Source: a bacterium (GTDB lineage: Bacteria > Bdellovibrionota_C > UBA2361 > OMII01). Taken from it: 50,758 nucleotides of DNA. Position numbers and translations under genes: made by a program. How positions within the stretch are numbered: the stretch's first letter is position 1; each line of letters opens with the position of its first letter. Location of the stretch: contig JAFMJG010000003.1 in the NCBI GenBank assembly GCA_017853605.1, positions 1-50,758 of the forward strand, given 5' to 3'. The notes below the pieces were generated by a model. The model did no database searches, was not told where the DNA came from, and worked only from the letters and a program-made list of their open reading frames with translations. Below, one piece after another: positions 6,199 to 29,684 of this stretch.

Positions 6199-8298
6199 TC
6201 ACTTCTCCGTCAGGTTCCAAACCGGCGAGAAGCCGGTTTCGCCAAGCTGCTTACTAGATGCTATCCGGGCGCAATATGCCCGACTGACGGGGTCATCGGC
6301 AAATGTCGCGAAGAGCTCCCCTGCTTCCACGACGTTGCCAGCCTCAAAGAGCTGCCTCGCCCGGTCGAATTCGCCGAGGCGCGAGAGGATCGCGCCATCA
6401 AGCCGGGGATGAAGCGGCTCGAAGAGCTGCACAGGCTCCTGGCGGCCAACAACCCTCGCCTGGCCCACCGTTCGCCATGCAAGCTCGTCTCCCGCCCGCC
6501 GGCGGGTGCTTCCTGAGACGAGCACATTCGTCCCGAAGACCTTGTTGACGCCCTCGAGGCGCGATGCAAGGTTGGCGGCGTCGCCGATAACGGTGTAGTT
6601 GAAACGGGTCGATGAGCCGAAGTTTCCCACGGTCACCGGCCCGGTGTGGATCCCTATGCGCATGCGGAGCGAGACGCCAAAATCCCGCTGAAACATCTGG
6701 CCGAGCTCCCGAAGGCGAAGCTGGCACTGGATTGCCGCATTCACAGCCCGCTTCTCGTGGTCGTGCACCTGCAGGGGCGCGTTCCAAAAGGCGATAATTG
6801 CGTCCCCCTCGTACTTGTCGATCGTCCCACCGGAGGCCAGAAGGATGTCTGTCATCTCGGAAAGGAACGTGTTGAGGAACGCCACGAGCTTCGCCGGCTC
6901 CATGCGCTCAGAGATGCTCGTGAACCCGGCGATGTCGGAGAAGAAGATCGTCAGCTCCCGCCTCTCGCCCCCCAGCGCCAGGCTCGAAGGGTCCTTAACG
7001 ATCTGGTTTATCACCTCTGGAGTGACGTAGTGCTGGAACGCTGCCTTTATGAATCGGTGCTGCCGGCCCTCAACCCGGTACTGGAGCAGAAACACCAACA
7101 GGAGCAGGTAGAGGCTCGAAAGGAGCGGGGCAACGACCGGAAGCCACCACCCCTGGGCAGCAAACGCGAAGCTTGCGCCCGCCCAAGCAAGCACGGCACC
7201 CAAGATGATCGCGGCCTGGTAGCGCGTTGCCCTCAGGCTGACAAGGGCAACGAGCCCGAGAAAGAGCGCCGTGAGCGCGAGTGCCGCTGCAGGCGGCACC
7301 TCACGGTAAAAGCTCGTGTGGAGGAGGTTGTCGAGAACCGTCGCATTGAGCTCAACCCCCGGATAGTTTCCCGCCACAGGAACCGGCCGCAGGTCGAGCA
7401 GCCCCGGTGCGTTCGTGCCGACAAAAACGTACGCATCCTTAAACACTTCAAGGGGGATGTCGGGCCTCTTTCCCTCACCGAGCTTCAGCCAGCTGTTGAT
7501 GACCGCCGCTATTGAGTACGTGTCGTAGGTCGCCTCCGGGCCGAAGAACCTGACCAGGAGCTTTCCGCCCTCTCCGGCCAGCGGCGCAACCTCCTCGCCC
7601 TTCCCAGACCCGGGATGCACGAGGGCATAGAGCGCCGCAGGAAGGCTCAGGACCGGTGTCTCGCCGACTCGCGCCCCGAGAGCAGCGTGCCGGAAGATCT
7701 TGTCGGCATCAGCCTCGGCAGACACGTTGCCGAGCGCTGGGCTAGCCTCGATAAGCATCGGTATCGGCAGGGTTGCCGACGGAAAGCGGGGGGACGCAAG
7801 GGAGGCGAGGAGGCGCTCGATCTCTCCCCTTCTCCTCTCTTGCGAGGACCGGAAGAGCTCCTCTGTTGCGGGATCACCATCGACGGAGTCACGCCGGGCG
7901 GATACCGCGCTCACAACCGGCAGTGAGCTCGCCACCACGTCAGCAAACTCCTTGTCGTCTCCGACGTGGGTTGAGCTCTCAGTAAAGAGCATGTCAAACG
8001 CCACGCCCCGCGCGCCGGCCCGCGCCAGGTAGAGGAGGACGGGATTGTACAGTGATCGCGGCCACGGCCAGTAGATCTGCTCTGTGCGCGCATAGTGGTC
8101 GATTGAGCTCTGGTCGACCATGATGATCTTAATCTTTGGGTCGTGAGCCTCCGGGCGAACAAGGGCCTGCTGCCGCATGTCCCAGGTCTTGCTCTCAATG
8201 TCCGCAAGCAGCCCTGAGCTGAGCAGAAGCCACGCCAGCAGCGCGGCAGAGAGCCATATAAAAAACACCCCCCGCTGTAGCTGTCTCGCCGCGCTCAT
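6199..8298 (-). CDS. CHASE2-domain class III adenylate cyclase
   Basis: CHASE2 motifs (WPWPRS, AFDMLF, YPGVELNAT), three TM helices, catalytic FSDIAGFT, DKYEGDAI, RIGIHTG, YTVIGDAANLASRLEG. Start placed at ATG 8298 behind AAGGAG. Confidence 0.93.
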   Translation of the reverse strand: MSAARQLQRGVFFIWLSAALLAWLLLSSGLLADIESKTWDMRQQALVRPEAHDPKIKIIMVDQSSIDHYARTEQIYWPWPRSLYNPVLLYLARAGARGVAFDMLFTESSTHVGDDKEFADVVASSLPVVSAVSARRDSVDGDPATEELFRSSQERRRGEIERLLASLASPRFPSATLPIPMLIEASPALGNVSAEADADKIFRHAALGARVGETPVLSLPAALYALVHPGSGKGEEVAPLAGEGGKLLVRFFGPEATYDTYSIAAVINSWLKLGEGKRPDIPLEVFKDAYVFVGTNAPGLLDLRPVPVAGNYPGVELNATVLDNLLHTSFYREVPPAAALALTALFLGLVALVSLRATRYQAAIILGAVLAWAGASFAFAAQGWWLPVVAPLLSSLYLLLLVFLLQYRVEGRQHRFIKAAFQHYVTPEVINQIVKDPSSLALGGERRELTIFFSDIAGFTSISERMEPAKLVAFLNTFLSEMTDILLASGGTIDKYEGDAIIAFWNAPLQVHDHEKRAVNAAIQCQLRLRELGQMFQRDFGVSLRMRIGIHTGPVTVGNFGSSTRFNYTVIGDAANLASRLEGVNKVFGTNVLVSGSTRRRAGDELAWRTVGQARVVGRQEPVQLFEPLHPRLDGAILSRLGEFDRARQLFEAGNVVEAGELFATFADDPVSRAYCARIASSKQLGETGFSPVWNLTEK

Positions 8299-8404
8299 GA
8301 TCGCCATCTCCTTGGGGCGCGAGCCCCTCAGAGCAGGGCATACCACGCCTCAGCCACCCTCACCAGGAGGGTAGGAGCGCGAGCTCCTGCTATCTACCGG
8401 CGCG

Positions 8405-15852: not shown

Positions 15853-18800
15853 CTAGTCTACTGTCCAAACCTTGCCTTCACTGTTGAGGAACATCTTTTT
15901 CATCTCGTCGAGGGTGAAGGGCCGGGAGCCGAGGCGCCCTAGGACGCTTACCTGGTTGCCGGTCTCGTCAACCGCACGATCACGATCGAGGGGCTTTGAG
16001 ATCGCGAGTGCCGGTCCGGCCATCTGCTTGCGCGCGATCACGATCGGCCTGACTGGGGGAGAGAATCCGTAGAACCCAGGAACCCGGTCCGGGTCGGTAA
16101 GCTGGATGACAACGAGCCCGTTTCTTCCGTCAGCAACGTAAGCAAAGAGACTCGCGTTGGTGCTCGCTACTTTGACGTCGTGCGTGTCGTTGAGCCTGCC
16201 TCCATCCGTAAACTTCTCGTGCACGAAGGGGGATTCCGGCCTCTCAATGTCGACTATCACAAGCCCCTCGGCCCCGCCGGCGACATACGCGTACGTGCGC
16301 GCCACGTAGAGATTTCTGGCGTCAGCGAGGGGGACCGAAGCCGCCGGGACAACTCTTGGCGCTGAAGGATGGGTGATGTCGATGACGTGGAAGCCCTCTT
16401 CATCGGTCATAAAGGCGTAGCGGAACTGGATGGCGACCGCCGAAGGGCGTTTCGCCGGCCACGCTGCCTCCACCCGAGGCTCAAGAGGGTCATCGATGTT
16501 TAGGACAACCACTTTGTCCTCGGTGCCAATAAAGGCACGCGCGCCTGCGAGGGTGATACACCGGGCTCCTGTGAGAATGCCGTCCTTGTTCCAGGTCAGC
16601 TCCCGCTCCAGGAAGTTGTTGCGGGGCTCCCCATCCTGCAGGGTATCGACATTGACAACGATCAGCCCCTCCTCGCTGTCTGAGATGAATGCGTAGTGGT
16701 AGATCGGGTGCATCGGCGCCTCAAGGTTCTCAGGGAGCTGCTTCTTGAACGGCGCTACAGGCATGGTGGTGGGAAGCGCGACACCGGTCGCATTTTCGCT
16801 TGCAACGTGCGTGTCCTGCCCAAGCGGAGAGACAGGGCTGGTCACGATGCGCTCCGAAAATCCCTTGTTCGCGATGTTTGCGATGTCGTACACCCGGAAA
16901 CCGTCCGAGCCAGCCGCCGTGTAGAGGTACTCCCCGCGCATCTGTATCGAGCGCGTGCTGCCCCCGGCTCCGTGGTGGCGGTGGCTCTCCTCAAGCTCCA
17001 TCCCACGCTCCCGGTGGGCCTTGTAGTAGTCAGGGTAGGCGTAGCGGTGCAGGTAGCTTCCGATAACTGCCTGTGGCTCGTCCCACTCGGTCACCTGGAC
17101 GGCCTCAAGCCCCTCCTCGCCGGCCGCAACCCAGGCGTAGTGACCCATAAAGTTGACGAAGTTTGTTCCGAGCAGCAGGAGCTGGGCCATGATGGCGTTG
17201 TTGTCGTTCTCCTTCGACACATGGCAGTCCTTGCATTCCTTGGTCTCGCGGGTGCGGACGGTGTGCGGAAAGTGCGGCGCGAAGGCCTGCGAGCTGTGCC
17301 CGCTCCCCGAGGTCGGCGGCTGCTGGATGTAGATCTTTTGGCGATTGGTGTCGGTTGAGCTCAACATCAGGGCGCTGGATGAGCGGACCGGAACGATCTT
17401 GCCGTTCTTGGCCGGGCCATGGCGGCCGAGCTGGTACATATCGTCTCGCGCAACCTGAGGGTTGTAGGTAGCCCAGTTGCGCGTGACCTTTCCTTCGTAG
17501 TGCTTGGTACGGCTCTTCCAGTTTGCCTGAATCGGCAGGTGGCACCCGCCACAGGCCGTTGTCCACGAGCTGTGGCAGGCGAAGCACGACATGTCGCCAT
17601 TAGGGTGCGCAAGCTTCTCGTTGGCGTTGGGCTGCGCGGCCTCCCTGCTCGACGCGAACGAGTACGTGACCGCGCCATCCTCAAGCTTCTTTACCAGCTT
17701 GGCCCGGGCTGACTTGCGGTTGTAGTCGCTGCTCCCGGGGTTAATTGAGTCCACTACCTGCTTGACCCGCCACTCGAGCCCCTTGGTGACCATCGAGCGC
17801 TGCATGAGCTGGTCGCCCTTCCAGACAAAGAGCCGCTCGCCCCATGGTGTGCGCTTGAGGGAGAGATCCTCGCCCCCCTCTGGGGCCGCTGGTCCAGAGG
17901 TGCGGAGCGTTGCCCGCCTAGAGACGTCACCATGGCAGTCTTCGCACCCGATCTGGACAGCCTGTGCCACCTCTCCGTATATATTGCCGTCCCCGTGCAC
18001 ATCCTGAGCGAAGTGGCAGTCAGAGCACTGCATCCCGAAGTCCACGTGTATGTCCTGAAGGTGAACCGCCCTCTTGAACTTCTCGGGATCGTCAAACGGG
18101 ACGATCTTGCCATCCTTGTCGAGCAGATGGCCTTTGCGGTCGCGCTTGAACACCGCCCGGAAGTTCCAGCCGTGGCCGTGGTAGTCAGCAAACTGGGTCG
18201 TCTTGAGCTTCGGGTTGAGGTCGGCAACCCTCCTGAGGAAATCAATGTCAGTCCACTTGCCGCGTATCGCAGCCTCCTCGGGATTGTGGCTGATAGAGGT
18301 GAAGGCCTCCTCATCCGTTGGGTAGCGCTGCTTTTCAGGCCACATCGCCGGCGCGTCTGCCTCGTAGTCCCACATGGTGTAGCCAACGTACGTGTTGAGG
18401 AACATGTTAGGCTGGTGCATGTGGCACACCATGCACTGGCTCGTCGGGATCGCCCGAGTAAAGACGTGCTTCAGCGGGTGCCCCTCCTCGTTCTTGGGTA
18501 TCGTGGGATCAACGGAAACCGACTTTCCGTCATGCCCATACTTCGCGTACGGCCCCGAGTGGGCAGGCGCCCGGTCATTTGCGTACACCGCGTGACACGC
18601 CGTGCACCCGCTGCTTCGGTAGTCTCCGGGGTGATCGTTGGTGCCGAGGAAGCTTAAGTGGGGATCATTGAGGCGGGTCTTGTGAATGTTGAGGAGCGGC
18701 ACGGCTATGCGCGCGCCAGTGCCCGGGCCGCGATTTGAGGCCTTCACGTCCGGCTTGCCGGAGTCCTCGAGGGGGTTGGGAACGCCGATGTCGGAGAACT

Positions 18801-19590
18801 GGCTACGAATAAAGATGCCGCCCCGCTCAAAGACGCGAAAGATGTCGGCCGGCGCAAATACCTCCCAGGTGGGCAGCGGCAAGAGCTTTCCAAGCGCCCC
18901 GCGCGCCCGCATCTGCGGGGTGAGAGGGCGATGATGGTCATGCAAGATTGATGCAGGCTCGCCCTGCTGCGTGTACGCCTCGCCGAGCAGGTAGACCTTG
19001 TTCGGGAGCAGCCCATTATTGTAGGCGGCCCCGCCAAACAGCATCGCCGACGTTGTCATGAGGCTCTTCTTGACGGCAGTGGTGATCTGCGAGTGGCACC
19101 CTCCGCACGCCTGGGGCGCGGCACGAAGGTCTCCGGGGTTGATGAATCGCGCGAAGTCCAGCGACTCCTTCGTGAGCTCAGTGTACGAGCCGCGCGGATT
19201 CGCCGATGTGGGCCACCATTCGGGGTGGCGCGGCTGCACGTGGGCCACCCTCTTGGCAGCTTCGTAGGCCACGCTGCCAGCTTTGAGGCCCTCCGCCCTC
19301 GCCGTGGGATCGCCCCCATGGCATTCAGCACATCCGATGTGAACCGCGGGGTTCTCGTGCATGGTGGGGGCGTCCGTCTTTGTGTGGCAATCGAGGCACC
19401 CGGTGCTGGACGACCTCATCACCTCGGGGCTTCCCCAGGGCTGAAGCACATTCTCGTACGGGTCCTCCGCGCCCGCCTGTTGCACGACTGCGGCAAGCTG
19501 GCAAGCAAGGGCGAGCACAACGGGAGCAACCGCTGCCCTGCTCCAACTTCCTAGCCGTGATCCCTCCTGTTTCGCCATCCTGTGCACCAT
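15853..19590 (-). CDS. secreted decaheme c-type cytochrome with C-terminal LVIVD-repeat beta-propeller
   Basis: Signal peptide; ten CXXCH motifs (CLDCH, CAECH, CGGCH, CTACH, CMVCH, CSDCH, CEDCH, CFACH, CGGCH, CKDCH); repeats FRVYDI, LIVVNV, FHVIDI, LVIVDI; start overlaps the upstream stop (TAATG). Confidence 0.9.
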   Translation of the reverse strand: MVHRMAKQEGSRLGSWSRAAVAPVVLALACQLAAVVQQAGAEDPYENVLQPWGSPEVMRSSSTGCLDCHTKTDAPTMHENPAVHIGCAECHGGDPTARAEGLKAGSVAYEAAKRVAHVQPRHPEWWPTSANPRGSYTELTKESLDFARFINPGDLRAAPQACGGCHSQITTAVKKSLMTTSAMLFGGAAYNNGLLPNKVYLLGEAYTQQGEPASILHDHHRPLTPQMRARGALGKLLPLPTWEVFAPADIFRVFERGGIFIRSQFSDIGVPNPLEDSGKPDVKASNRGPGTGARIAVPLLNIHKTRLNDPHLSFLGTNDHPGDYRSSGCTACHAVYANDRAPAHSGPYAKYGHDGKSVSVDPTIPKNEEGHPLKHVFTRAIPTSQCMVCHMHQPNMFLNTYVGYTMWDYEADAPAMWPEKQRYPTDEEAFTSISHNPEEAAIRGKWTDIDFLRRVADLNPKLKTTQFADYHGHGWNFRAVFKRDRKGHLLDKDGKIVPFDDPEKFKRAVHLQDIHVDFGMQCSDCHFAQDVHGDGNIYGEVAQAVQIGCEDCHGDVSRRATLRTSGPAAPEGGEDLSLKRTPWGERLFVWKGDQLMQRSMVTKGLEWRVKQVVDSINPGSSDYNRKSARAKLVKKLEDGAVTYSFASSREAAQPNANEKLAHPNGDMSCFACHSSWTTACGGCHLPIQANWKSRTKHYEGKVTRNWATYNPQVARDDMYQLGRHGPAKNGKIVPVRSSSALMLSSTDTNRQKIYIQQPPTSGSGHSSQAFAPHFPHTVRTRETKECKDCHVSKENDNNAIMAQLLLLGTNFVNFMGHYAWVAAGEEGLEAVQVTEWDEPQAVIGSYLHRYAYPDYYKAHRERGMELEESHRHHGAGGSTRSIQMRGEYLYTAAGSDGFRVYDIANIANKGFSERIVTSPVSPLGQDTHVASENATGVALPTTMPVAPFKKQLPENLEAPMHPIYHYAFISDSEEGLIVVNVDTLQDGEPRNNFLERELTWNKDGILTGARCITLAGARAFIGTEDKVVVLNIDDPLEPRVEAAWPAKRPSAVAIQFRYAFMTDEEGFHVIDITHPSAPRVVPAASVPLADARNLYVARTYAYVAGGAEGLVIVDIERPESPFVHEKFTDGGRLNDTHDVKVASTNASLFAYVADGRNGLVVIQLTDPDRVPGFYGFSPPVRPIVIARKQMAGPALAISKPLDRDRAVDETGNQVSVLGRLGSRPFTLDEMKKMFLNSEGKVWTVD

Positions 19591-21398
19591 TAGTACTGAA
19601 GTATGAGGTTCGTAAAGGTGTCGTACAGCGTCTGGCTGCCGAAGAGGTTCTCCTGGCCGCTGCCGGGGAGGAGAACCGCAACGCCAGTGCGGATGATGAC
19701 GTTATTGTTGAGAAACGGGCGGTAGACGAAGCCGGCAGAGAGATCTACGCCGATGTCCCTCGTGATCGACCCGTCTTGGCGAAGGTCCTGAAGGACCGCC
19801 ACCTGGTCGAACTGCAGGAAGCTCGTGTTGGTGACGAGCTTGAGCTCGGGGAGCAGATCGAAGTCGACGCCCACGTTGTACACCCGTATGCCCGGGTTGA
19901 CGAAGTTGGCTTGGCCGAGCTCCTTGCCGGCCTTCAGGTCGGGCAGCAAGCTGTTCCTGTTGACGAGGTTGACTCCGCCGCCGCCCACGAAGGGGATCGC
20001 CTCGCGCTGAAAGAACCCCAGGTCTCCCCCTGCAAAGTTCGGGTTGTCAAAGATTGAGTCGAACCCGGTACCGCGGCTGTCGTAAGGATCGCTGTCACCC
20101 GATGCCCAAAAGAATGAGGCACGGAACCTGACATAGTCTAGGTCGTACGAGAGCTCCTGGGCGAACATCTGCGCGCTGATGTCGACCTGCCGGTTTGCGA
20201 TAGGGTTGTGGCTCTCCGAGCCCATCACGTAGTAGTACTGGGTCGTCGTGTTGACGCGCCCAATATGGCCGTCGCCGCCGACGCCAAAATAGGTGGAATT
20301 GAGGTTCTTAAATCGCTCATCGCCGATCGGGGCGGGGCGCACGAGGAACCCGTTCCGGTCGTACGTGTAGCCCGCGTCCCCTGCGTTGTCCCGCCGGTTG
20401 ACCACGCTAAAGAGCATCGTGTGGCCGGGGGCAATCATGTCCTGGCGGTACATGTTTGCCACAAAGACATCCTGGTGCCTGTAGTCGAAGGTCGTGTTGA
20501 TGCCGGTGTTGGTGTCCTTGTCGAGCAAGAAGAATGCCGCTGCGTTAAACTGAGTCCTGTTATTGTCATAGTTTCCGAACACTCGGACACCGGGCTCGTT
20601 GTCGTTGAACAGGAACCCCCGGAAGTCAGCGTTGAACTGCTGGATTCCGAGCCGTGTCGAGACAAAGTCATAGCGCTCTGAGAGGTTTGCCAGGTGAATG
20701 TCAGCAAAGAGCTCCTGGAAGCCAAACGCCTGGGCGGTTCGGGTGTCGCCGAAGGCAGGATCCGCCTTGAGAAGGCCGTCCTCTTGCGCGTACAGCCGGT
20801 TGACCTGGAAGATCGGCGCAATTCGCAGCTCAAAGTCTGGCGGCTTGAAGGCTGTGTCGCCCTTTATGAGGCTGAAGGATGCGATGACGTTCTCGGCAAA
20901 GAAGTTCTGGTCCCCGTCGCCAAAAACGTTGTTGCTGTTGGGCCTCTTGGTGCTCGCCTGGCCCACCGGCACCGGTATGCGCCGCGCCTCGAAGAGGGTG
21001 TCCGAGATAACCGAGACCTCCGTAAACCATTCCTCTCCAGGCTTCCCAAAGGCTGGTATGTCGGCCTTGAGCGCGTTTTGGTTGTAGGGATCATAGTACT
21101 TGCCCGCGTAAAACATGCGCCAGCGATCCGGCACGGCGATGAACTCTGTGGCAGAATCATGAACGGGCTGGATCGACTCATAGATCGTGTCTGGAAACGG
21201 TGCCGGCTCGCTGTCGGGCATGCGGCGTGGCGCCTCGCTGGTCACCGACAGGCCGCCAAGAGATCCCGCTTCCTCCTGGGCGAGCGCCGGCCGCACAGAG
21301 GCCCCAAGAGCGAGCACGAGCACGGCACCCAGCAGTGCGTCGGCCGACGCCCGGCGGGAAGCCCCCTCGCCCGACTGTCTCGGAGCCCGCTGCCCCAT
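19590..21398 (-). CDS. large outer-membrane beta-barrel (porin-like) protein
   Basis: Signal peptide ending ALA|Q; aromatic/Gly/Asn-rich amphipathic strands; terminal NLILQY beta-signal. Confidence 0.78.
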   Translation of the reverse strand: MGQRAPRQSGEGASRRASADALLGAVLVLALGASVRPALAQEEAGSLGGLSVTSEAPRRMPDSEPAPFPDTIYESIQPVHDSATEFIAVPDRWRMFYAGKYYDPYNQNALKADIPAFGKPGEEWFTEVSVISDTLFEARRIPVPVGQASTKRPNSNNVFGDGDQNFFAENVIASFSLIKGDTAFKPPDFELRIAPIFQVNRLYAQEDGLLKADPAFGDTRTAQAFGFQELFADIHLANLSERYDFVSTRLGIQQFNADFRGFLFNDNEPGVRVFGNYDNNRTQFNAAAFFLLDKDTNTGINTTFDYRHQDVFVANMYRQDMIAPGHTMLFSVVNRRDNAGDAGYTYDRNGFLVRPAPIGDERFKNLNSTYFGVGGDGHIGRVNTTTQYYYVMGSESHNPIANRQVDISAQMFAQELSYDLDYVRFRASFFWASGDSDPYDSRGTGFDSIFDNPNFAGGDLGFFQREAIPFVGGGGVNLVNRNSLLPDLKAGKELGQANFVNPGIRVYNVGVDFDLLPELKLVTNTSFLQFDQVAVLQDLRQDGSITRDIGVDLSAGFVYRPFLNNNVIIRTGVAVLLPGSGQENLFGSQTLYDTFTNLILQY

Positions 21399-21403
21399 CT
21401 CCG

Positions 21404-23284
21404 CTACCCTTCCGTGCAGACACCCTGTTCATTGCTGCCACTGAAGGGGGCTTCAGGACAGTTGACGTAGCGAAGCCGCGAATTGCGCTGAGGAACGATC
21501 TGGTCCGCCCGTATCTCAAGCGGCGCGTTGAAGCCAAGGTAGGGATCACCGACGGTGGTGTACCCAACGTAGTCGAGCCCCCGGCGGCTCGCGCCATAGA
21601 AGGCCACCATGTCATCCTGGTCCACGCCGTCTCCGCTGACGCCGATCGCCCCAATCAGCACCCCGCCCCGGTACAGCGGCACGGCGCCGGGGAAGATCTG
21701 AATGCCGTTCCTCAAGCGGCCCCCAAAAACCGCGCTCGTGCACGAGCTGGGCACGGTGCCGGGCTGCAGTATCGGACCAACGAGACTGCCAAACACGAGG
21801 TCGAGCTGCAGGCCGGTATTGAAGACCGACCAGCTCGGGCCTGCCGCTGTCCCGGGGAACGGCAGCGAGAAGGGGCCGTTGGCGGTGCCGTTGATTCCAT
21901 CCGGGAAGAAGGGCCGTGAAACGTTTCCCACCGAGCGGTTGGCGAATGCGTGGCTGCCATCGAGCGAGACACCCGTGAACGCCGCGAAGCTCGCTGCGTA
22001 GTTCGGCGAAACGCCGGCAGCAAGCAGGGTGCCGGCGCTCGCGGAGCTCATGAAAGCCGCCGTGCGCGCCTTCTGGAGCGAAACGTCCACGCCAAACACG
22101 GGGGCATCCTGGGAGCGGATAAAGCCCAGCGGGTTTCCGCTCTCATCAACCACAAAGATCGACACCCGCGCAGAGGTGTCGAGCGGCTGACGTATCGCGG
22201 CCCGGGCGCGGTAGGCGGTGGTGAGCGCCGAGTCGAGCAGGGCGTTCACATCGCTGGCAGAGAGCTGGGCTCCGCCAGGCAGGGGCCTGCCCCCGATGGT
22301 TGGGAACCTCCCAACCAGCACAGCCGCAGGAATTCCCGCCTTCTCTGTTGCGACGATGCCGGAAGGGGCTGTGCCAAACGTGGTGCCGGCCCTGATCTGG
22401 CCATTGGTGTACGAGGGCTGTGACTTGAAGCCTGCCGGGTCGAGGGGCTCAAGCTCCGCAGGCGCCACGATCTCGTTGTACGTCGTGTCTGAGTAGCGCA
22501 GAGACCGGCCCGCCAGCGAGATGCTGTTGCCCGTCCGTTGCGCAGGCGCCTCAAACCCGAGGCTCGCCGTCATGGCCACAACTTCCTCAGGCGACTCCTG
22601 GTAGTCCTGCAGGTTTGGATCGATGGTGTAAAGCCCGTCGAACTCTGCGCTGACACCGCCAACCACGTCTCCCTGCTTGTAGAGCGGGAATCCCCCTGGA
22701 TCGGCCGAAAGCCCAAGCGGCAACGGCCTAGGCCCCACAGGGCCGTTTGCCCTGGTGATGTCGCTGCATATCAGCTGCGAAAACTGAACCCCAAAGAGCG
22801 GCCCGCCCGGCTGGTCGTTCTGGCCGGGAAGGTAGTTCTGCTGGATAATCTGCCCCGCCGTCCGGGAGGAGAATGCGTTTCCCTGCGAGCTTAGGTAGGC
22901 TCCGGTTCCAGCTTTTGAAATCGCGGCAAGCGTCGAGGGAACTGCTATCCCTTCAAGCCCGCCGCTGGCTCCCGTCTGCCCATTAATGGTCGTTGTCTGG
23001 GGCGCTCCGCTCATCTGGTACAGGGCGAGAACATTGCCGGTCCGGTCAGTGATGGCGAACGTCGCTGCCGTCCCCATCCCCTTTGCCGCTGCGACCCCCT
23101 GCTGCAAAATAGTGGTCACCTCCTCAACCGACAGGGACTGGTTAGCGCAGCTGCCATCACAATTAAAGTTGGCAGCGGGGTCCCCGCCGCTCGTCTCGCC
23201 CGCACTTCCGCTGCCGCCCCCGCAGCCGAGCAGCGCCGTCATGAGGGCAGTGGCAGAGATCATCGTCAGTTTCTTGTGGGCCAT
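21404..23284 (-). CDS. lipoprotein with two HbpS/GlcG-like heme-binding domains
   Basis: Lipobox LLGC; two copies of the family signature (AISKAGTG...GGFPLYKQGDVVGGVS and SLQKARTA...GAVPLYRGGVLIGAIGVSG). Confidence 0.82.
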   Translation of the reverse strand: MAHKKLTMISATALMTALLGCGGGSGSAGETSGGDPAANFNCDGSCANQSLSVEEVTTILQQGVAAAKGMGTAATFAITDRTGNVLALYQMSGAPQTTTINGQTGASGGLEGIAVPSTLAAISKAGTGAYLSSQGNAFSSRTAGQIIQQNYLPGQNDQPGGPLFGVQFSQLICSDITRANGPVGPRPLPLGLSADPGGFPLYKQGDVVGGVSAEFDGLYTIDPNLQDYQESPEEVVAMTASLGFEAPAQRTGNSISLAGRSLRYSDTTYNEIVAPAELEPLDPAGFKSQPSYTNGQIRAGTTFGTAPSGIVATEKAGIPAAVLVGRFPTIGGRPLPGGAQLSASDVNALLDSALTTAYRARAAIRQPLDTSARVSIFVVDESGNPLGFIRSQDAPVFGVDVSLQKARTAAFMSSASAGTLLAAGVSPNYAASFAAFTGVSLDGSHAFANRSVGNVSRPFFPDGINGTANGPFSLPFPGTAAGPSWSVFNTGLQLDLVFGSLVGPILQPGTVPSSCTSAVFGGRLRNGIQIFPGAVPLYRGGVLIGAIGVSGDGVDQDDMVAFYGASRRGLDYVGYTTVGDPYLGFNAPLEIRADQIVPQRNSRLRYVNCPEAPFSGSNEQGVCTEG

Positions 23285-23296
23285 GTGCGGTGATTC

Positions 23297-24970
23297 CTAG
23301 CGAGTTAGGCTTTTAAGGTACGAGGCGATATCTTCCTTTCTTTCGCCCGGAAAACCAAGCGAATCGTGGTACGAGTGGCACTCTGTGCAGTCCGAACGCA
23401 CAAAGCCTTCAGTATCCTCGCTGCGGTGGCACTCCTGGCACAGCTGCTTGCGGGGCAGAAGAAGATCTTTTGTCTCTGACGAGCCACGGGCTTTTTCGTG
23501 GCACGACTCGCAGGTGAACTTCTCGTGCGCGCCGTGGCTGAAGTGCGCCTGCGGAAACCACACCGAAGGGATGTTGGGCTCAGCGACAGAGTAATGGGCA
23601 TTCGACACAGTCTGCTCGCTACTTGGCTTTTCGGCTATTGAGTGGCAGAGAAAGCACGCTGTTTTCGTGAAGAGCTGCTTTTCAGCATCTCGGGCGCTGC
23701 CCAGCACCGCAGCGATGCTCTGTGGCACCGGAGCCTCCTCCGCGCCAGGAACGGAGCCAGGCATGTCTCGCGTGGAGTCATGCGCAGGGTTCGGCACCGA
23801 CTCATCTTCCTTAAGCAGCACAACCTTTGAGTATGCGGCAAAGAGCGACTCGAACACAGATTCAGCGTCCCCGTGCGGAACCTCTTCGTACGGAAGTCGC
23901 TCGTCGAAGCCCAGCGAGTGGCAGTCGCGGCAATGCTTGTCAAAGCGTATCGGCTCCAGCTGCCTGAAGTCGGGGCCAAGCCTGTGGCACGCGCCGCATT
24001 CAAGGGTGACAGGCCCCTCTTTGCCCCTCAGGCCGCGCTTGAGGTGAAGCTTATGGTTAAGCTTGATGCGGGACGAGTCGACCGCGCGCTCTTGGTCATC
24101 GAGGCTAACGCGGGACACCGTCCCTTGGGGGCCAGGGACTGAAATTTTGAACTGCGGGTGCAGGTCAAACGACGGCACGTTCTCTGCCGTGGCTCCAGGC
24201 TGCAGAGACGCCATCCTCGCGTGGCACGAGGAGCACTGCCGCGAGTCGTGAGTGATGACCCCTGAGTCCCCGTTGTGCTCCATGTGGCATTGGGCGCAGC
24301 GCGCCTGGAGCGCCGGATGCCGCGCATTGAAATCCCCGATGCCCTTGGCGTGCTCAGTCATGTGGTGGCAGGTGAGGCACTGGGCGTCCTGCACCGGCTG
24401 GAAGGGCTTGGCGTGGCATTGTCCGCAGTCCTCCTCGATGAGCTGGTGCGCCCTCGAGACCGGCCCTGTGCTCCACGCATCTTTTTCGCCAGAGCCAATC
24501 GGCAGGGCGAGGAACACCAGCGAGACCAAGACGGCAGCTGCCAGCGAGAGCATCCTCATCGGCGGCACGTGGGACTCAATCCCGAGCGCCGCGAGGCCCC
24601 TTGCCGCGAGATCCTGATCCTGCGCCGGCTGGGCGAGCCCCTCGACCAGCGTAAGCTCCGCCTCCTGCCCCTGCAGCCGCACGCGAGCCTCAATATCGCC
24701 CAGGGACACCACGTCGCCGTCGGCAAGCGCAGCTCGAGCAACACGCCGCCCATTGACCCGGATTCCCGCAAGGCTCCCTAGGTCAAGCACGGCGAGTGCG
24801 CCCCCTTCCCAGGCGAACCGCGCATGCTCTATTCCGATGCGCTGGCCAACGAGGATGACGTCGGACTCGCCGCCCCTGCCCAAGACTATTTCTTGTTGCT
24901 CAACCCGGGTCTCGCTGCGCTCGACTGAGCCGTTGCTCCCGTGCCTCTCGTGGATGATTCGGAACGCCAT
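23297..24970 (-). CDS. FHA domain, TM helix and decaheme cytochrome c3-like fusion
   Basis: N-terminal IVLGR...EHA...DLGS..GIRVNG (FHA), one TM helix, then ten CXXCH motifs. Confidence 0.88.
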   Translation of the reverse strand: MAFRIIHERHGSNGSVERSETRVEQQEIVLGRGGESDVILVGQRIGIEHARFAWEGGALAVLDLGSLAGIRVNGRRVARAALADGDVVSLGDIEARVRLQGQEAELTLVEGLAQPAQDQDLAARGLAALGIESHVPPMRMLSLAAAVLVSLVFLALPIGSGEKDAWSTGPVSRAHQLIEEDCGQCHAKPFQPVQDAQCLTCHHMTEHAKGIGDFNARHPALQARCAQCHMEHNGDSGVITHDSRQCSSCHARMASLQPGATAENVPSFDLHPQFKISVPGPQGTVSRVSLDDQERAVDSSRIKLNHKLHLKRGLRGKEGPVTLECGACHRLGPDFRQLEPIRFDKHCRDCHSLGFDERLPYEEVPHGDAESVFESLFAAYSKVVLLKEDESVPNPAHDSTRDMPGSVPGAEEAPVPQSIAAVLGSARDAEKQLFTKTACFLCHSIAEKPSSEQTVSNAHYSVAEPNIPSVWFPQAHFSHGAHEKFTCESCHEKARGSSETKDLLLPRKQLCQECHRSEDTEGFVRSDCTECHSYHDSLGFPGERKEDIASYLKSLTR

Positions 24971-24973
24971 ATC

Positions 24974-25789
24974 CTACCGGTAGAAGAGCACGACAACGAT
25001 GTGGATAGCGAGCGCAACACACAGCGCGCACGAGAGGGGGATGTGGGTGTAGAGCCAGAGCTTAAGCAGCGCCTTGATCCGCGCCTGCTCCAGGAGCGAC
25101 CGAATCAGGTCAAGCCGCTGGTCGAGCAGCCCAATCATTGCTATGGCATCACGCTGCTCCGCATCGGAGATAACTGAAAGCATCACTGCTGCCGCTTTTT
25201 GGTTCACCGACGGGTGCCGCTCCTTGACGATAATTGACCAGAGTGAGAGGTCGAGCGGCACATCAAAGGCGTTGTAGACCTGGAGGAAGGCTTCGCTCTT
25301 TCCCGCGCAGAGTGCCTCTGCCTGCTTGCCAAGCTCCCCTATTCGCTCAAGCATTGTCGCGTCCGTTGCCCCTCCCCGGTGCGCCGTGATCTTGCCCGAC
25401 AGCCGCGAGTAATTCACTGCCCCCCAGATGCCGGTGGCGATGGTGCCTACCATCAGGACGTAGGCGGTTGTGTGGACATCAAGCCCGAAGCTAAATCCTG
25501 AGTGGAGGGGCACGAGCAGAATGAGCCCGATACCGATCCAGACGTGGGCAGCAAGCCAGCCTTCGACGGTTCCCAGCGAGGATCTGTAGGCCCGCTTGCG
25601 GGCCGCATACGCCATGAGCAGACCGATGCCGAGAGCGGCGATCGTGCCAAAGGCGTACCCAAGCGCCGTGCCGCCATTGTTGCCGCCCACGGGGCTATTG
25701 AGGGCATACATCGTGGTGCACACAAGCAGCCCAACCGCAGTGATCCACAGCCACCTAAACCGCTTGTAGGAAATGAACGTCTCCTGCAT
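24974..25789 (-). CDS. integral membrane protein, putative di-heme b (ferric-reductase/NOX-like) module
   Basis: About 5 TM helices; H-VWIGIGLILLVPL-H and H-IPLSCALCVALAI-H (both H-X13-H); start ATG 25789 with GAGGGG RBS. Confidence 0.75.
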   Translation of the reverse strand: MQETFISYKRFRWLWITAVGLLVCTTMYALNSPVGGNNGGTALGYAFGTIAALGIGLLMAYAARKRAYRSSLGTVEGWLAAHVWIGIGLILLVPLHSGFSFGLDVHTTAYVLMVGTIATGIWGAVNYSRLSGKITAHRGGATDATMLERIGELGKQAEALCAGKSEAFLQVYNAFDVPLDLSLWSIIVKERHPSVNQKAAAVMLSVISDAEQRDAIAMIGLLDQRLDLIRSLLEQARIKALLKLWLYTHIPLSCALCVALAIHIVVVLFYR

Positions 25790-25797
25790 CTCGCCCC

Positions 25798-28140
25798 TCA
25801 AATCCTCTTTAGGCCGGCTATCTCCACCAGCTTGCTCGAGTGCACTCGCATGGCGGCGCCCGTTGGGCATGCCCGCACGCACGCCGGGCCGCCTGGCAAG
25901 CTGGCGCACATGTCGCACTTTGCCGCTTTTGCTGGCCCCTTCTCCTTCTTCGCCAGGCCCAAAAGTGCCCGGAGCGAGAAGCCGTCACTGGCCTTGTCGT
26001 ACACGATCTTGATTACGCCGTAGGGGCAGTTAGTGACGCAGTTCCCGCAGCCGATGCACGAGTCGCGGATGATCACCTCGCCACTTGGAGTGCGGGTGAG
26101 CGCATCCGGAGGGCAGTCGGTCATGCACAGGGGATTCTCGCAGTGGCGGCACGAGATCGGAACCTGAATCGAGGCGAAGCTCTTGCCCCCCTTCCGATCG
26201 AGGCGAGAGTACCCGTTGTGGGTCGCGGCGCACGCAGCCTCGCAGTTGTCGCACGAGACGCAGAGGTCTGAGTTGATGAGAAGCACGTTCTCGGCATCCG
26301 AGAGCCCCTGCTGCATCATGAAGTCGAGGAGCGAGCCTGCTTCCTCGCTCCAGTCCGCCATCGCATTCTGCACCCGACGGCGGTCCACCTCGCGATGGAT
26401 GGATGCGCGCGTGTCCGGGAACTCCCGCAGCAGCTGGATCACGTCGTCCTTTTTTAGGGCGATCAGGTCGCATGCAACAGCAGCCGTGCATGTTGCCGAC
26501 CTCGGGGTGGGCTCCTCACTGACTACGGCCATCTCGCCGATGTAGCTGCCGGCCGGGACATAGGTGCGCGCGATGTCCTTGCCGGACGGCGCGAGCCGCG
26601 ACACCTTGACTGAGCCCTTGCGGATAACGTACGCCGCATCTCCGAGATCCCCCTCCCTGAAGATGACCTCCCCCTTCTTGAAGCTCTTCATCTCGGCACG
26701 CTTCACGAGCGCCTGGAGGAATGGCTCTGGCGTGTCCGGGAACACGGCGGTCTGGAGGGCGCGAAACATGAAGAGCTCATCGAGGGCGCGCTTGACCGAT
26801 CCAACTGAGGCGATCAGCTTGAGGACCTGCTTGCGGGGCGTCTCAAGCAGGAGCGTTCCGGGCGCAGCCACGCGAACCGTTGCCACACGGCGCCTTCCAG
26901 AGAGGAGGCCCATCTCGCCGAAGAACTGCCCCTGCCCGAGCTTGATTGTGCGCCCTAGCCCTATCTCTATCTCGACCGCGCCTGACACAACGCTGAAGAA
27001 CGTGTCGGTGTAGTCGTTCCTCTCAAAGACAACTGCCCCAGGCTCCTTAAGGTGCAGCGTCGAGTCGATCAGCATTTCACGAAGCTGGGGCGCGCTGAGA
27101 TCCTTAAAGAGCGGAAGGTTTGCCGATATTTTCGGGAAGTTTTCGGCAAACCCTCCTGGCAGGCCCACGAACCGCTCCTCAAGAAGCGGCTGGTCGGCAG
27201 GCTGCACCGGCTCGCCGCGAATGTGCTCGATAACCTCGTAGCCCTGGTTCATGGCCTGCTTAATAAGCGGATAGCCGATCAAGGCGCCGAGCACATAGAG
27301 GCCTGGAACGCTCGACTCGTACCGGTGGCTCACGGACGGCACAGCATTGGGATCAGGGCTTGGGAAGGTGATGCCCGCTGTCTCAAGAAACTTGCGCGGC
27401 AGGACGCAGCCGAGGCGGGCGATGATGTGGTCACACGGCACCGTGACCTCGCCATCGGGGGTGTTGATATGGGCGGACTGGGGCTCGATTCGCGCCACCG
27501 TCGCGCCATAGAAGCACCGTATCTTGCCGCCCTCAATTGCCCCCAGGATCAGCTTCGAGTTGGCGTCCTTCGCGCGCGCAAACTCAGTTCCGCGGTTCAC
27601 GAGCGAGACCGTGTTTTTTTCGGCGAGCGCCAGCGCGTTCTCAATAGCGGCGTCTCCGGCGCCAACCACGATGATGTGCTTGCCGCTGAAGGCGCCCGGA
27701 TCTGAGAGCGTGTACGCCACGTTGCCCTGCTCCTCGCCTGGCACCCCGAGCTTGCGCGGGGCACCCTGCACGCCAATCGCCAGAATGACGTGCTTGGCAG
27801 TGCAGGTTCCCCCCTGGTACCCGACCTCAAACGTTTCGCCCTTTTTCTCAATCCGAAGAACCTCTGCCCTCCTGAGGTTGGCCTTCAGCCTTCCCAAGTC
27901 CTCCTGGTACTCCTGCAGGATCTTTTCCCGGCTCCCAGCCTCAAAGCGGCAGTGGGCCCGGAGGGGAAGCCGCCCAGGCTCCGCCATGACATGCTTGCGC
28001 AGCTGGTAGTCATAAATCGTGTTGGCGATCTCGCCCTTCTCGAAAAGGACGTGGGGGAGGCCGTGGTGCGCTGCGCTTGCGGCGGCAGCGAGCCCGGCTG
28101 GGCCGGCTCCGATAATCGCAATCTCAAAATGCTCGGACAT
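25798..28140 (-). CDS. FAD/NAD(P)H oxidoreductase, 2x cyclic-nucleotide-binding, 4x[4Fe-4S] fusion protein
   Basis: GAGPAG and VVGAGDAA Rossmann motifs; cNMP cassettes FFGEMGLLSGRRRVAT and YIGEMAVVSEEPTPRSAT; CVSCDNCEAAC, CRHCENPLCMTDCP, CIGCGNCVTNCP, CDMC..GGPACVRACP. Start may be 28140 or 28173. Confidence 0.92.
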   Translation of the reverse strand: MSEHFEIAIIGAGPAGLAAAASAAHHGLPHVLFEKGEIANTIYDYQLRKHVMAEPGRLPLRAHCRFEAGSREKILQEYQEDLGRLKANLRRAEVLRIEKKGETFEVGYQGGTCTAKHVILAIGVQGAPRKLGVPGEEQGNVAYTLSDPGAFSGKHIIVVGAGDAAIENALALAEKNTVSLVNRGTEFARAKDANSKLILGAIEGGKIRCFYGATVARIEPQSAHINTPDGEVTVPCDHIIARLGCVLPRKFLETAGITFPSPDPNAVPSVSHRYESSVPGLYVLGALIGYPLIKQAMNQGYEVIEHIRGEPVQPADQPLLEERFVGLPGGFAENFPKISANLPLFKDLSAPQLREMLIDSTLHLKEPGAVVFERNDYTDTFFSVVSGAVEIEIGLGRTIKLGQGQFFGEMGLLSGRRRVATVRVAAPGTLLLETPRKQVLKLIASVGSVKRALDELFMFRALQTAVFPDTPEPFLQALVKRAEMKSFKKGEVIFREGDLGDAAYVIRKGSVKVSRLAPSGKDIARTYVPAGSYIGEMAVVSEEPTPRSATCTAAVACDLIALKKDDVIQLLREFPDTRASIHREVDRRRVQNAMADWSEEAGSLLDFMMQQGLSDAENVLLINSDLCVSCDNCEAACAATHNGYSRLDRKGGKSFASIQVPISCRHCENPLCMTDCPPDALTRTPSGEVIIRDSCIGCGNCVTNCPYGVIKIVYDKASDGFSLRALLGLAKKEKGPAKAAKCDMCASLPGGPACVRACPTGAAMRVHSSKLVEIAGLKRI

Positions 28141-28322
28141 GCAGCCTGCCAGCCCCCAGCCGGAATTCTCCATCGGCCGTAATCAGCCGCCAGGAGAGGC
28201 ACAAATATACGTGTGACCGATGATGCGAGGCAATTCAATACGCGAGCTGCAGCATCAATTTGGCGGGCGCCAGACTGCGCAGCGCGCAGCTCCGCAGGCA
28301 CTGGCGGGGGGCTGCGTGAATG

Positions 28323-28352
28323 ATCCTTGAAAAGCGCACCCGTTTCAGGGAT
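28323..28352. promoter_or_regulatory. imperfect inverted repeat in the divergent promoter region
   Basis: ATCCTTGAAA-N10-TTTCAGGGAT, 9/10 symmetric. Confidence 0.35.
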
Positions 28353-28406
28353 ACCTCCGGAAGCCGTTACCGCGCTTGAACACAAGGGTGAAGAGAGGGG
28401 GCTTTT

Positions 28407-29684
28407 ATAGAACGCTTTTTTATCCGACTGATCGCCGTCGTTGCCTGCGTCTTTCCCGCCGCTGCTGAGGGATCGCCCGACACGTACGTGGGCACAGGCT
28501 CCTGCTCGTCATCTACCTGCCACGGCAGCGTGCGCGCCCTGCGGGGATCAAACGTCCTGCAAAACGAGTACTACACCTGGCTGAAGCACGACAAGCACTC
28601 AGGGGCCTTCACGGTGCTCCTCAAGCCTGACGCCCGCCGAATGGCATCGCTGCTTAACCTCGGGGATCCTTCACGCGAGCCCCTCTGTTTACAGTGCCAC
28701 GCCACCTACGTTCCAGACGCCGAGCTGCGCGGCGAGAAGTTTGACATTGAGGACGGGGTCTCGTGCGAGTCGTGCCATGGGGCTGCGGGGCGGTGGCTTG
28801 AGTCGCACGCCGTTGCTGGCGCCACGCATGCGGAGAATCGTGCCCGGGGCCTAACTGACACGGTGTCGCTGACAAGCCGCGCGGCGCTTTGCCTGTCGTG
28901 CCACTACGGGGACGGCGACAAGCGGGTAACGCACGACCTCTACGGAGCCGGACACCCTCGCCTCAGCTTTGAGCTCGACACCTTTGGCGTCATGGAGCCC
29001 AAGCACTGGGTCATAGATGACGATTACCTCAAGCGAAAGGGCCCGTACGTCCCCGTGGCCGCATGGATCATCGGCCAGCAGGCGCTGGCGGAGGGGATCG
29101 TTCGCACCCTCAGCTCGCCTGAGCTTTCGCGCAACGGCATGTTCCCGGAGCTCTCGGTTTTTGACTGCTACTCGTGCCACCACAGCCTCTCTGAGGAGCA
29201 GTGGAAGCGCCGCACCTACGGCGGAAAGCCCGGCCGGCTCGCAGTCAACATAGCTCCGCTCCTCATGATCAGGGAGGCGCTCGTGGCGCTGAACCAGCCG
29301 GATGCGCCGGAGTTTGCAGCCCTCGTATCGACGCTTCATGACTCATACCAGTCTGACGGGGCCCCTCAGGCGCTCGCGCGACTGCAGGCCCTCCTGGCGG
29401 GCAGCGTGGGCGATTTCGCTAGGCGCATGCCGGGAGATGAGGCAGCGTCCCTAGCGATCATGCGGCAGTTGGCTTCCTTCGGCGCACAGGCAGAAGCGCT
29501 AAAGTACGAAGCTGCAGAGCAGATCGGAATGGGCATCCAGGCTGCGATGGCCACCTCGCCCCGCCTTTCAGCGAAGTTTAAGGCTCCGCTAGACAGGCTC
29601 TTTGTCACGCTTGAGAGCGCGCGGAGCTTCAGCCCCGCGAAATTTAAGGAGGCCGCGTCACAGCTCGCCCTTAAGCTTTCCTGA
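28407..29684 (+). CDS. multiheme cytochrome c554-like protein
   Basis: YVGTGSCSSSTCH (CX4CH) plus CLQCH, CESCH, CLSCH, CYSCH; GVSCESCHG motif. An in-frame signal peptide lies upstream of GTG 28488; exact start uncertain. Confidence 0.85.
   Translation: MERFFIRLIAVVACVFPAAAEGSPDTYVGTGSCSSSTCHGSVRALRGSNVLQNEYYTWLKHDKHSGAFTVLLKPDARRMASLLNLGDPSREPLCLQCHATYVPDAELRGEKFDIEDGVSCESCHGAAGRWLESHAVAGATHAENRARGLTDTVSLTSRAALCLSCHYGDGDKRVTHDLYGAGHPRLSFELDTFGVMEPKHWVIDDDYLKRKGPYVPVAAWIIGQQALAEGIVRTLSSPELSRNGMFPELSVFDCYSCHHSLSEEQWKRRTYGGKPGRLAVNIAPLLMIREALVALNQPDAPEFAALVSTLHDSYQSDGAPQALARLQALLAGSVGDFARRMPGDEAASLAIMRQLASFGAQAEALKYEAAEQIGMGIQAAMATSPRLSAKFKAPLDRLFVTLESARSFSPAKFKEAASQLALKLS

Follow-up and report, generated by a model that had tools for sequence, protein, structure and literature searches.

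A conserved seven-gene locus of the Bdellovibrionota as a candidate regulated chain for exporting electrons from NAD(P)H

What function might be served by seven adjacent genes that together encode an NAD(P)H flavoprotein with cyclic-nucleotide-binding domains, a membrane protein with paired histidines, a probable outer-membrane barrel and three multiheme c-type cytochromes? The question is raised by positions 15853-29684 of a 50,758-nucleotide (nt) stretch of DNA from a bacterium of the Bdellovibrionota, which belongs to an assembly of 3.0 Mb in 220 contigs (GCA_017853605.1, contig JAFMJG010000003.1) and is referred to below, in its whole length, as the window. The reading that appears probable on balance is that the genes specify a regulated chain, driven by NAD(P)H, by which cytoplasmic electrons are exported to a module associated with the outer membrane.

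The locus is filled by six minus-strand open reading frames (ORFs), designated A to F, and one divergent plus-strand ORF, G (Table 1). These ORFs had been pointed out in an original prediction, made from the letters alone, of a cyclic-nucleotide-gated electron conduit across the cell envelope. All seven are present where it placed them, and the gaps between the six minus-strand genes are confirmed as 8, 3, 12, 5 and -1 nt, the 8-nt gap requiring that B start at the ATG at 25789. Its figure of about 25 c-hemes agrees with the 25 c-heme motifs counted, namely ten CXXCH each in C and F, and four CXXCH and one CX4CH in G, and the domain content that it gave for A, C, D, F and G is matched by Pfam families. 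The Pfam scan of the seven proteins assigned no family to B or E. The label of beta-barrel given to E is drawn from its signal peptide and C-terminus and not from a family match, and E is called here a probable barrel.

Table 1. Positions in the window of the seven genes and of a candidate regulatory gene
Feature	Description	Position	Strand	Length (amino acids)	Basis
A	Cytoplasmic thioredoxin reductase (TrxR)-like NAD(P)H flavoprotein with two cyclic nucleoside monophosphate (cNMP)-binding domains and a HycB/HydN-like four-[4Fe-4S] domain	25798..28173	-	791	Pfam and PDB matches
B	Inner-membrane protein with five predicted helices and two H-X13-H pairs; predicted di-heme cytochrome b	24974..25789	-	271	
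C	Cytoplasmic FHA domain, one membrane helix and periplasmic decaheme c-type cytochrome	23297..24970	-	557	Pfam, CXXCH count
D	Lipoprotein with two HbpS/GlcG (DUF336)-like domains	21404..23284	-	626	Pfam, lipobox
E	Probable outer-membrane beta-barrel of unnamed family	19590..21398	-	602	Signal peptide, C-terminus
F	Exported c-type cytochrome with ten heme motifs and a fused LVIVD beta-propeller region	15853..19590	-	1245	Pfam, CXXCH count
G	Divergent periplasmic pentaheme cytochrome with a c554/OTR-like N-terminal half	28407..29684	+		Pfam, CXXCH/CX4CH count
Cyclase	CHASE2 class III nucleotide cyclase, candidate regulator, 7.5 kb beyond F	6199..8346	-		Pfam CHASE2 1e-44, Guanylate_cyc 3e-22

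That the seven genes form one conserved unit, beyond a chance association, is supported by their distribution. Ten loci from same-genus genomes and genomes of other families were compared, and all seven genes occur in the order of the window in eight of them, with D-E-F only in the other two. A pattern scan of public genomes, with one genome per species, gave 599 stretches, of which 592 were confirmed and 80 kept, so that relatives of F occur in at least 592 genome stretches. Among the public loci with full 10-kb flanks, 23 of 33 hold all seven genes, and most of the others end just before A. Conservation of the seven genes together, for which a synteny search had been suggested, is thus borne out.

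The gene order nevertheless varies among lineages: D-E-F stay adjacent across the public loci (E adjoins F in 89 of 91 loci), while G, A, B and C shift their place and strand. The order is B-C-D-E-F-G-A in Betaproteobacteria, and G-D-E-F followed by a convergent A-B-C in Caulobacterales and Sphingomonadales. The record titles of the 80 kept stretches name Bdellovibrionota, Alpha-, Beta- and Gammaproteobacteria, Acidobacteriota, Binatia and 'Deltaproteobacteria', and the hosts, to judge by these titles, are mostly aerobic environmental heterotrophs and not classic metal reducers. Three bins with the Betaproteobacteria-type order (L095, L055 and L059) are titled Klebsiella pneumoniae, Bordetella parapertussis and Streptomyces, titles that look mislabelled.

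The presence of F is linked with that of A. A search of 41 relatives detected F in 30, though in G012 as a fragment of 53 residues only. A was found in exactly the 29 with a full-length F, and neither A nor a full-length F in the other 12, a pattern and not a statistic, as kin are not independent. In two of these genomes (G038 and G039) A lies on another contig than D-E-F. Among 301 Alphaproteobacteria, a full-length A occurs in 18 and F in 14, all 14 of which have A. When candidate clusters were scored, 7999 of 8000 matched the family of F, and all of the 120 source names listed for this family read 'hypothetical protein'.

To assess which residues are conserved, alignments were made with 44 of 54 references for A, 51 of 59 for B, 43 of 51 for C and 60 of 82 for E, the dropped rows being same-genus near-duplicates and, for A, also L017 and L080, which have an internal stop. 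The N-terminal third of A resembles TrxR-like NADPH reductases and YpdA, and the C-terminal 160 residues are similar to the four-cluster HycB/HydN proteins. The matches are to Pyr_redox_3 (3e-35), Pyr_redox_2, cNMP_binding in two stretches (2e-36) and the Fer4 dicluster families in Pfam, and to the TrxR-like reductases 7a76 and 2zbw, YpdA (7a7b) and HycB3/HycB in the PDB. None of the 16 cysteines of the four ferredoxin-type motifs varies in 45 sequences, and the Gly-Glu and Arg of each cNMP cassette are invariant or at least 90% conserved (FGEMG...RRRxAT in the first; GEMA...PRSAT, with the canonical PRSAT, in the second). A conserved Gly-Glu and Arg characterise phosphate-binding cassettes of the CAP/PKA type, and A is predicted on this ground to bind nucleotides. 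It has no signal peptide, and its orthologues align from about residue 12. The possibility that A is a thiol-disulfide reductase was considered and rejected: the best YpdA/TrxR-like matches, including one in NCBIfam (1.6e-44), are far under their cut-offs, and A is fused to iron-sulfur (FeS) domains.

Protein B is predicted from its conserved residues to be a di-heme cytochrome b. Of the four histidines that make up its H-X13-H pairs, three show no variation in 52 sequences and the fourth is conserved in at least 90% of them; the pairs are H82/H96 in the third predicted transmembrane helix and H249/H263 in the fifth (numbered from Met1). Both pairs are also kept in the distant relatives of the ptd type described below, where a fifth conserved histidine, H106, is not. 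Weak family matches among the 52 members are to Ni_hydr_CYTB (45), DUF4405 (13) and Ferric_reduct (7), all of which are families of two-heme membrane cytochromes, and the B of the window scores 16 bits, the cut-off being 30.1. A sequence search of solved structures with B gave chance-level coiled-coil matches only. The positive-inside rule places the N-terminus, the loop between helices 2 and 3 and an insert of about 115 residues in the cytoplasm; H82 and H249 would therefore lie near the inner face of the membrane, and H96 and H263 near the outer face.

The complex of residues 615-791 of A (45-row alignment) with B (52-row alignment) and two hemes was predicted. Its score was 0.66 (0.68, 0.66 and 0.66 in the runs) versus 0.00 for the best control, a value that may partly mirror likeness to solved complexes of FeS subunits with cytochromes b and that was obtained with a set-up departing from the calibration of the score. 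The mark that it passes is reached by 58 of 80 solved complexes and by two of 110 mismatched pairs. At least 87% of the contacts are common to the runs, and the predicted local distance difference test (pLDDT) of the partner is at least 82. On A, the interface comprises residues 634-651 and 759-773, which are the first and fourth cluster motifs; on B, it comprises residues 1-4, 64-78, 126-134, 142-143, 238 and 241 (prediction numbering, to which one is added for numbering from Met1). The latter are exactly the segments predicted to be cytoplasmic, and they flank H82 and H249. The model supports the placement of the FeS domain of A on the cytoplasmic face of B, the binding itself being predicted.

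Protein C matches FHA (4e-11) and cytochrome c7/c3 families in Pfam. All ten heme motifs and ten further histidines are invariant in 44 sequences, and in the FHA domain GR is invariant or at least 90% conserved, with HA and NG kept in the consensus. Protein G matches Cytochrome_C554 in Pfam (6.8e-12) and 1sp3 in the PDB (6.7e-4); each of its five heme motifs is conserved in at least 90% of 58 sequences, and there are six further histidines. The genome encodes Ccm cytochrome-c maturation genes and a heme-copper oxidase, and is therefore that of an aerobe able to make c-type cytochromes. The succession proposed in the original prediction, from NAD(P)H and flavin through FeS clusters and two b-hemes to c-hemes, fits both the conserved cofactor residues and the docking model of A and B.

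The start of G requires comment. No ATG, GTG or TTG stands ahead of the signal peptide in a frame that is open from 28395; the ORF with a canonical start begins at 28488. The likely start is the ATA at 28407, which follows the purine-rich stretch GAGAGGGGG. The orthologues of G have a signal peptide ahead of the CX4CH motif, and the same-genus locus L018 has a Met codon upstream of it. The missing canonical start may reflect either a rare start codon or an error in the assembly or sequence.

From these features, the following course of electrons may be proposed. A would oxidise NAD(P)H at its TrxR-like flavin adenine dinucleotide (FAD) domain and pass the electrons to its own four [4Fe-4S] clusters. 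With the FeS domain seated on the cytoplasmic face of B, the two bis-His b-hemes of B, one near each face of the inner membrane, would take the electrons across to the membrane-anchored decaheme C and probably to the soluble pentaheme G. The endpoint would be the decaheme-propeller protein F, acting at the outer membrane together with the lipoprotein D and the barrel E, and candidate final acceptors are Fe(III), another extracellular or periplasmic oxidant, or O2. Outward flow would cost reducing power and membrane potential, and the chain should therefore be kept under control. This could be exerted through the two cNMP domains of A, which lie between its flavin and FeS parts, and in some lineages also by phospho-threonine signalling at the FHA domain of C. 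We infer the direction of flow, the route from C and G to F, the independence from quinone, the gating by cNMP and the final acceptor.

The sequences suggest that the chain is probably under cyclic-nucleotide control. The ORFs of 91 loci (the window and 90 others) were clustered in a survey of neighbouring genes, which shows a CHASE2 cyclase in 13 loci, the window included, and inside or beside the cluster in the 12 others. A metallophosphoesterase, closest to the SpdA/CpdA cyclic-nucleotide phosphodiesterases although under their cut-offs, occurs in ten loci, a Stp1-like PP2C in seven, and Ccm genes in 8-12. The link to a second messenger that had been suggested at the outset is thereby backed, by the conserved cassettes of A on the one hand, and by cyclase and phosphodiesterase genes in or beside the cluster in other lineages on the other.

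Promoter-like and terminator-like sites are no commoner in the window than in shuffled sequence, and the intergenic regions between A and G of 12 loci align too poorly to reveal a common operator. Two arrangements of neighbouring genes were seen in particular lineages. In Caulobacterales and related Alphaproteobacteria (L068, L076, L097 and L098), a CpdA/SpdA-like phosphodiesterase and a CHASE2 cyclase stand side by side between F and C-B-A. In Halieaceae (L081, 14967-18580; L085, 14889-17023), G is followed by a PP2C and a double-FHA protein, and in L081 also by a Ser/Thr kinase.

The three proteins of the outer module differ in how much their sequences tell. D matches the HbpS-like family of Pfam (1e-20) in three stretches, and its nearest solved relative is EfgA (6bws, 2.5e-9), a protein that binds the small molecule formaldehyde. 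It has four conserved cysteines, no conserved histidine and no heme motif, and the binding of heme or another ligand is putative, from the family. Its lipobox, LLGC, is kept in most but not all orthologues. D is not universal: in a metagenome-assembled genome titled Methylobacter (L058, 1004-13666), the order is G-A-B-C-E-F with a gap of about 600 bases between C and E.

E has a signal peptide, no cysteine and an aromatic C-terminus (...NLILQY). A scan for alternating hydrophobicity gave about 30 segments, and is too crude to separate an 18-strand from a 26-strand barrel. When 1.84 billion representatives were searched with a profile of E, 2064 relatives came to light, the best 150 of which include no fusion of E with D. 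Some members of the family (P0123, P0129, P0131 and others) are 900-1140 amino acids long, with N-terminal extensions unrelated to D.

F consists of a decaheme part (residues 40-830 approximately) and an LVIVD beta-propeller region (about 880-1245; Pfam LVIVD, 1.2e-19). An alignment of 90 sequences shows at least 95% conservation of the 20 cysteines and ten histidines of the heme motifs and of 14 further histidines, some of which form HGH and HxxH pairs. It is the most conserved of the seven proteins, with identities of 66-84% within the order and 55-61% across phyla; outside the order, identities are 41-51% for A and 24-35% for E, D, G, B and C. Its signal peptide is of the signal peptidase I type, with no conserved lipobox. 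Some orthologues of F have a precomputed match to domain II/IV of MtrC, and sequence searches of structures found no solved relative of F or E. The possibility that F is a relative of ExtM was rejected, as it scores 67 bits versus an NCBIfam cut-off of 800 and the best-scoring stretch covers only about 50 residues.

The inner part of the locus has already been described once, without a function. The accessible part of a preprint describes ptdABCDEFG, a putative porin-cytochrome operon of marine bacteria whose function is stated to be completely unknown, and in which PtdA is a pentaheme protein with a beta-sandwich, PtdB a porin, PtdC an FAD/NAD(P) oxidoreductase, PtdD a tetraheme, PtdE a cNMP-binding 4Fe-4S protein, PtdF a ferric-reductase-like membrane protein and PtdG a periplasmic decaheme (bioRxiv 10.1101/2023.11.21.568154). 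The pentaheme is put by its authors in the NrfA COG family (bioRxiv 10.1101/2023.11.21.568154). In the literature, the name of this operon was found only in the founding preprint. G, A, B and C of the window have the features of PtdD, PtdE, PtdF and PtdG, and they match, with weak to moderate sequence similarity, four genes of loci that fit this description.

Four of the 301 Alphaproteobacteria have A without F, and one of these, together with one genome with a partial A, carries a ptd-like locus. The two loci, L114 (G227:C36, 7874-18326) and L113 (G172:C7, 1347-11472), are called ptd-type from the published description and not from the sequences of its authors. L114 begins with a tetraheme, a cNMP-FeS protein without a flavin domain, a B-like protein and a decaheme without FHA, and continues with a pentaheme, a 532-amino-acid protein without a family and a FAD_binding_6/NAD_binding_1/Fer2 reductase (FNR/PDR-like, with a 2Fe-2S domain). 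L113 holds a fused A and a pair consisting of a pentaheme and a 532-538-amino-acid protein. By tblastn, A, C and G align in both loci and B in L113 only, although both H-X13-H pairs are present in the B-like ORF of L114.

The ptd-type loci differ from the window in several respects. Their outer module is a pentaheme and a porin, and they have neither an HbpS-like lipoprotein nor an LVIVD protein; E and F show no profile similarity to the pair in L113, hhalign giving probabilities of 3.6% and 0.2%. The flavoprotein of L114 is separate and FNR/PDR-like with 2Fe-2S, in contrast to the fused TrxR-like domain of the window, and its decaheme lacks the FHA domain of C. On these comparisons, G-A-B-C is an inner module common to both kinds of locus, and there are at least two outer modules, of which D-E-F is one. 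The same core of cNMP-FeS protein and di-heme b appears to be served by two NAD(P)H flavoproteins that are unrelated to each other, and NAD(P)H is thereby independently supported as the donor. A third context was seen in L116 (G250:C10, 3559-11292), where ORFs with 18 and 14 CXXCH adjoin a gene for a TrxR-like protein that lacks an FeS domain and one for a B-like protein in which both H-X13-H pairs are present.

The D-E-F module was not found described in print. No covering family name, solved structure or paper was found for D, E or F, D and F having Pfam domain matches. LVIVD and multiheme proteins occur together in one preprint, the accessible part of which concerns an unrelated cluster, uet, and a paper on Methylobacter at anodes deals, in its accessible part, with an MtrA/MtrB-type cluster distinct from that of the window. 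The accessible portion of a survey of outer-membrane multiheme cytochromes makes no mention of a propeller, Caulobacter, Limnobacter or Bdellovibrio. The statement that no characterised system has the architecture of the window holds against these sources as far as they are accessible, with the qualification that ptdABCDEFG, with the same inner module and no assigned function, is in print.

With the MtrCAB/Pcc systems, the locus shares neighbouring genes that encode a barrel of the outer membrane and c-type multiheme cytochromes, and a heme relay spanning the periplasm. In contrast, it has no member of the MtrB/PioB, MtrA/DmsE or quinol-dehydrogenase (CymA/NapC) families; TIGR03508 (the DmsE family) matches G only, with 7e-5 and 22 bits versus a cut-off of 192, and matches neither C nor F. 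A quinol input of the NapC/NirT/CymA or ImcH/CbcL type was not found among the seven proteins or their conserved neighbours, and the predicted input is the NAD(P)H flavo-FeS protein with the di-heme b protein. Further differences are that the lipoprotein D has no heme motif and that the hosts are mostly aerobes by record titles.

In NADPH oxidases (NOX) and ferric reductases (FRD), as in MsrQ-Fre, electrons pass from NAD(P)H through flavin to two bis-His b-hemes on two helices, and outward, without quinone. The predicted heme ligands of B, on the third and fifth helices with X13 spacing, are in accord with this arrangement. B is, however, no clear member of Ferric_reduct (seven weak matches among 52), and differs in its five predicted helices and in the large insert on its cytoplasmic side. 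Moreover, flavoprotein A is separate and of the TrxR-like Pyr_redox type, with no fused FNR-like FAD_binding_8/NAD_binding_6 domain, and the locus interposes four FeS clusters and two cNMP domains and adds 25 c-hemes beyond.

A third likeness is to respiratory enzymes in which an FeS subunit with four clusters is paired with a di-heme cytochrome b (FdnH-FdnI, HybA-HybB and HycB), in that the C-terminus of A is of the HycB/HydN type, the best weak family match of B is Ni_hydr_CYTB and docking of A with B is predicted. The FeS module of the window, in contrast, is cytoplasmic and fused to a flavoprotein and cNMP domains, and the catalytic molybdo- or NiFe subunit is missing. A quinone site, though possible, is not evident.

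Several observations weigh against a chain that ends at the outer membrane under the control proposed. D is missing from one complete locus (L058). E has no Pfam or NCBIfam family and no MtrB/PioB match, and its sole family hint consists of weak Alginate_exp matches in 8 of 61 orthologues (best E-value 3e-4); this model has no match in the genome of the window, E included, at E-values up to 10. The hint, to a small-pore export barrel, fits a substrate channel as well as a cytochrome sheath. The conservation of F would suit a substrate-specific enzyme better than a generic surface wire, and F, with an ordinary signal peptide and without a lipobox, may stay in the periplasm. The FHA domain of C lacks the canonical phospho-threonine-binding Ser, GIEH in the window standing for SxxH. 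Between F and the cyclase of the window there are 7.5 kb, and the genome encodes three cyclases in all, so that the link of the window to its own cyclase is weak. To these may be added the two reservations attached above to the docking score.

F is conserved above A, E, D, G, B and C, and would therefore have a specific catalytic or binding task. This keeps alive a different explanation, in which A, B, C and G feed a periplasmic terminal reductase, F, with E as the uptake channel of its substrate and D binding or delivering it. F would be enzyme-like in its identity of 55-61% across phyla and its 14 histidines beyond the heme motifs, and its want of a lipobox, the small-pore hint for E, the GlcG/HbpS fold of EfgA, the nearest solved relative of D, and the pentaheme of the alternative, ptd-type outer module, which its authors place with NrfA in the accessible text, all point the same way. 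Against it, general porins are usually enough for small substrates, so that a dedicated adjacent barrel and lipoprotein are not obviously needed; F matches no known reductase family or solved structure, and the neighbouring genes suggest no candidate substrate. A periplasmic reductase is thus regarded as rather unlikely.

It is quite improbable that the locus serves redox sensing and not a lasting metabolic flux, with few electrons reporting the extracytoplasmic redox state, or that of heme and iron, to the cytoplasm or the reverse. The HbpS-family domains of D, the FHA domain of C and the cNMP domains of A, as well as the cyclase, phosphodiesterase, kinase and PP2C genes nearby, would be in keeping with such a role, but a sensor would hardly call for equipment as heavy as 25 c-hemes, four FeS clusters and an NAD(P)H flavoprotein of its own. 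In addition, no transcription factor or histidine kinase was found to be conserved with the cluster in the 91 loci of the neighbour survey.

An inward flow, by which F would take electrons from an external donor, for example Fe(II) or a mineral in reduced form, and the chain would let A make NAD(P)H, is considered very improbable. TrxR-like ferredoxin-NADP reductases can work in both directions, and porin-cytochrome systems for metal oxidation exist. Such a flow would nevertheless oppose the membrane potential, and the potentials of most donors are far higher than that of the NAD(P)+ couple; the hosts, by record titles, are mostly aerobic heterotrophs, and no link to carbon fixation was seen in the neighbourhoods of the 91 loci. 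That A-B-C-G and D-E-F are two unrelated systems that are merely neighbours here is already disfavoured and scarcely credible, for, although D-E-F lie apart from A in G038 and G039 and A-B-C-G occur with other outer modules, F was never found without A in the genomes searched (29 of 29 relatives and 14 of 14 Alphaproteobacteria) and the linkage persists in several phyla despite the rearranged order.

If the export chain works as proposed, it would constitute a quinone-independent, signal-gated route by which NAD(P)H is spent outside the cytoplasm. It would then bear on reductive iron acquisition by aerobes, on the source of bacterial extracellular superoxide and on the redox supply to the periplasm. 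Since the same inner module is combined with two or more outer modules that are unrelated, the system can be tested in cultured hosts, and the published ptd operon gains a context. Cultured carriers among the record titles are Limnobacter alexandrii, Parahaliea maris, Sphingoaurantiacus capsulatus, Hyphococcus sp. and Fontimonas sp. The family of F is, furthermore, very large and widespread, mostly in aerobic environmental bacteria by record titles.

A bolder version of the export chain, which we consider unlikely, would make it a widespread, envelope-spanning bacterial counterpart of NADPH oxidases and ferric reductases, that is, a cNMP- and phospho-threonine-gated wire that leads from NAD(P)H in the cytoplasm, by way of FAD, four FeS clusters, two b-hemes and 25 c-hemes, to a surface decaheme-propeller enzyme, with which aerobes would reduce extracellular Fe(III) or other oxidants or make superoxide. 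G-A-B-C would then be a 'periplasmic power socket' for varied outer modules.

Around the cluster, two flanking ORFs of 438 and 446 amino acids (29690-31006 and 12559-13899) match neither a Pfam nor an NCBIfam family and are without counterpart in related loci. Beyond G, at 31212-34193, lies a gene for a protein of 993 amino acids with a spermine/spermidine-synthase domain. Such a protein does not adjoin the cluster in other families, and does so in the same-genus genome G001 (L018, 64% identity).

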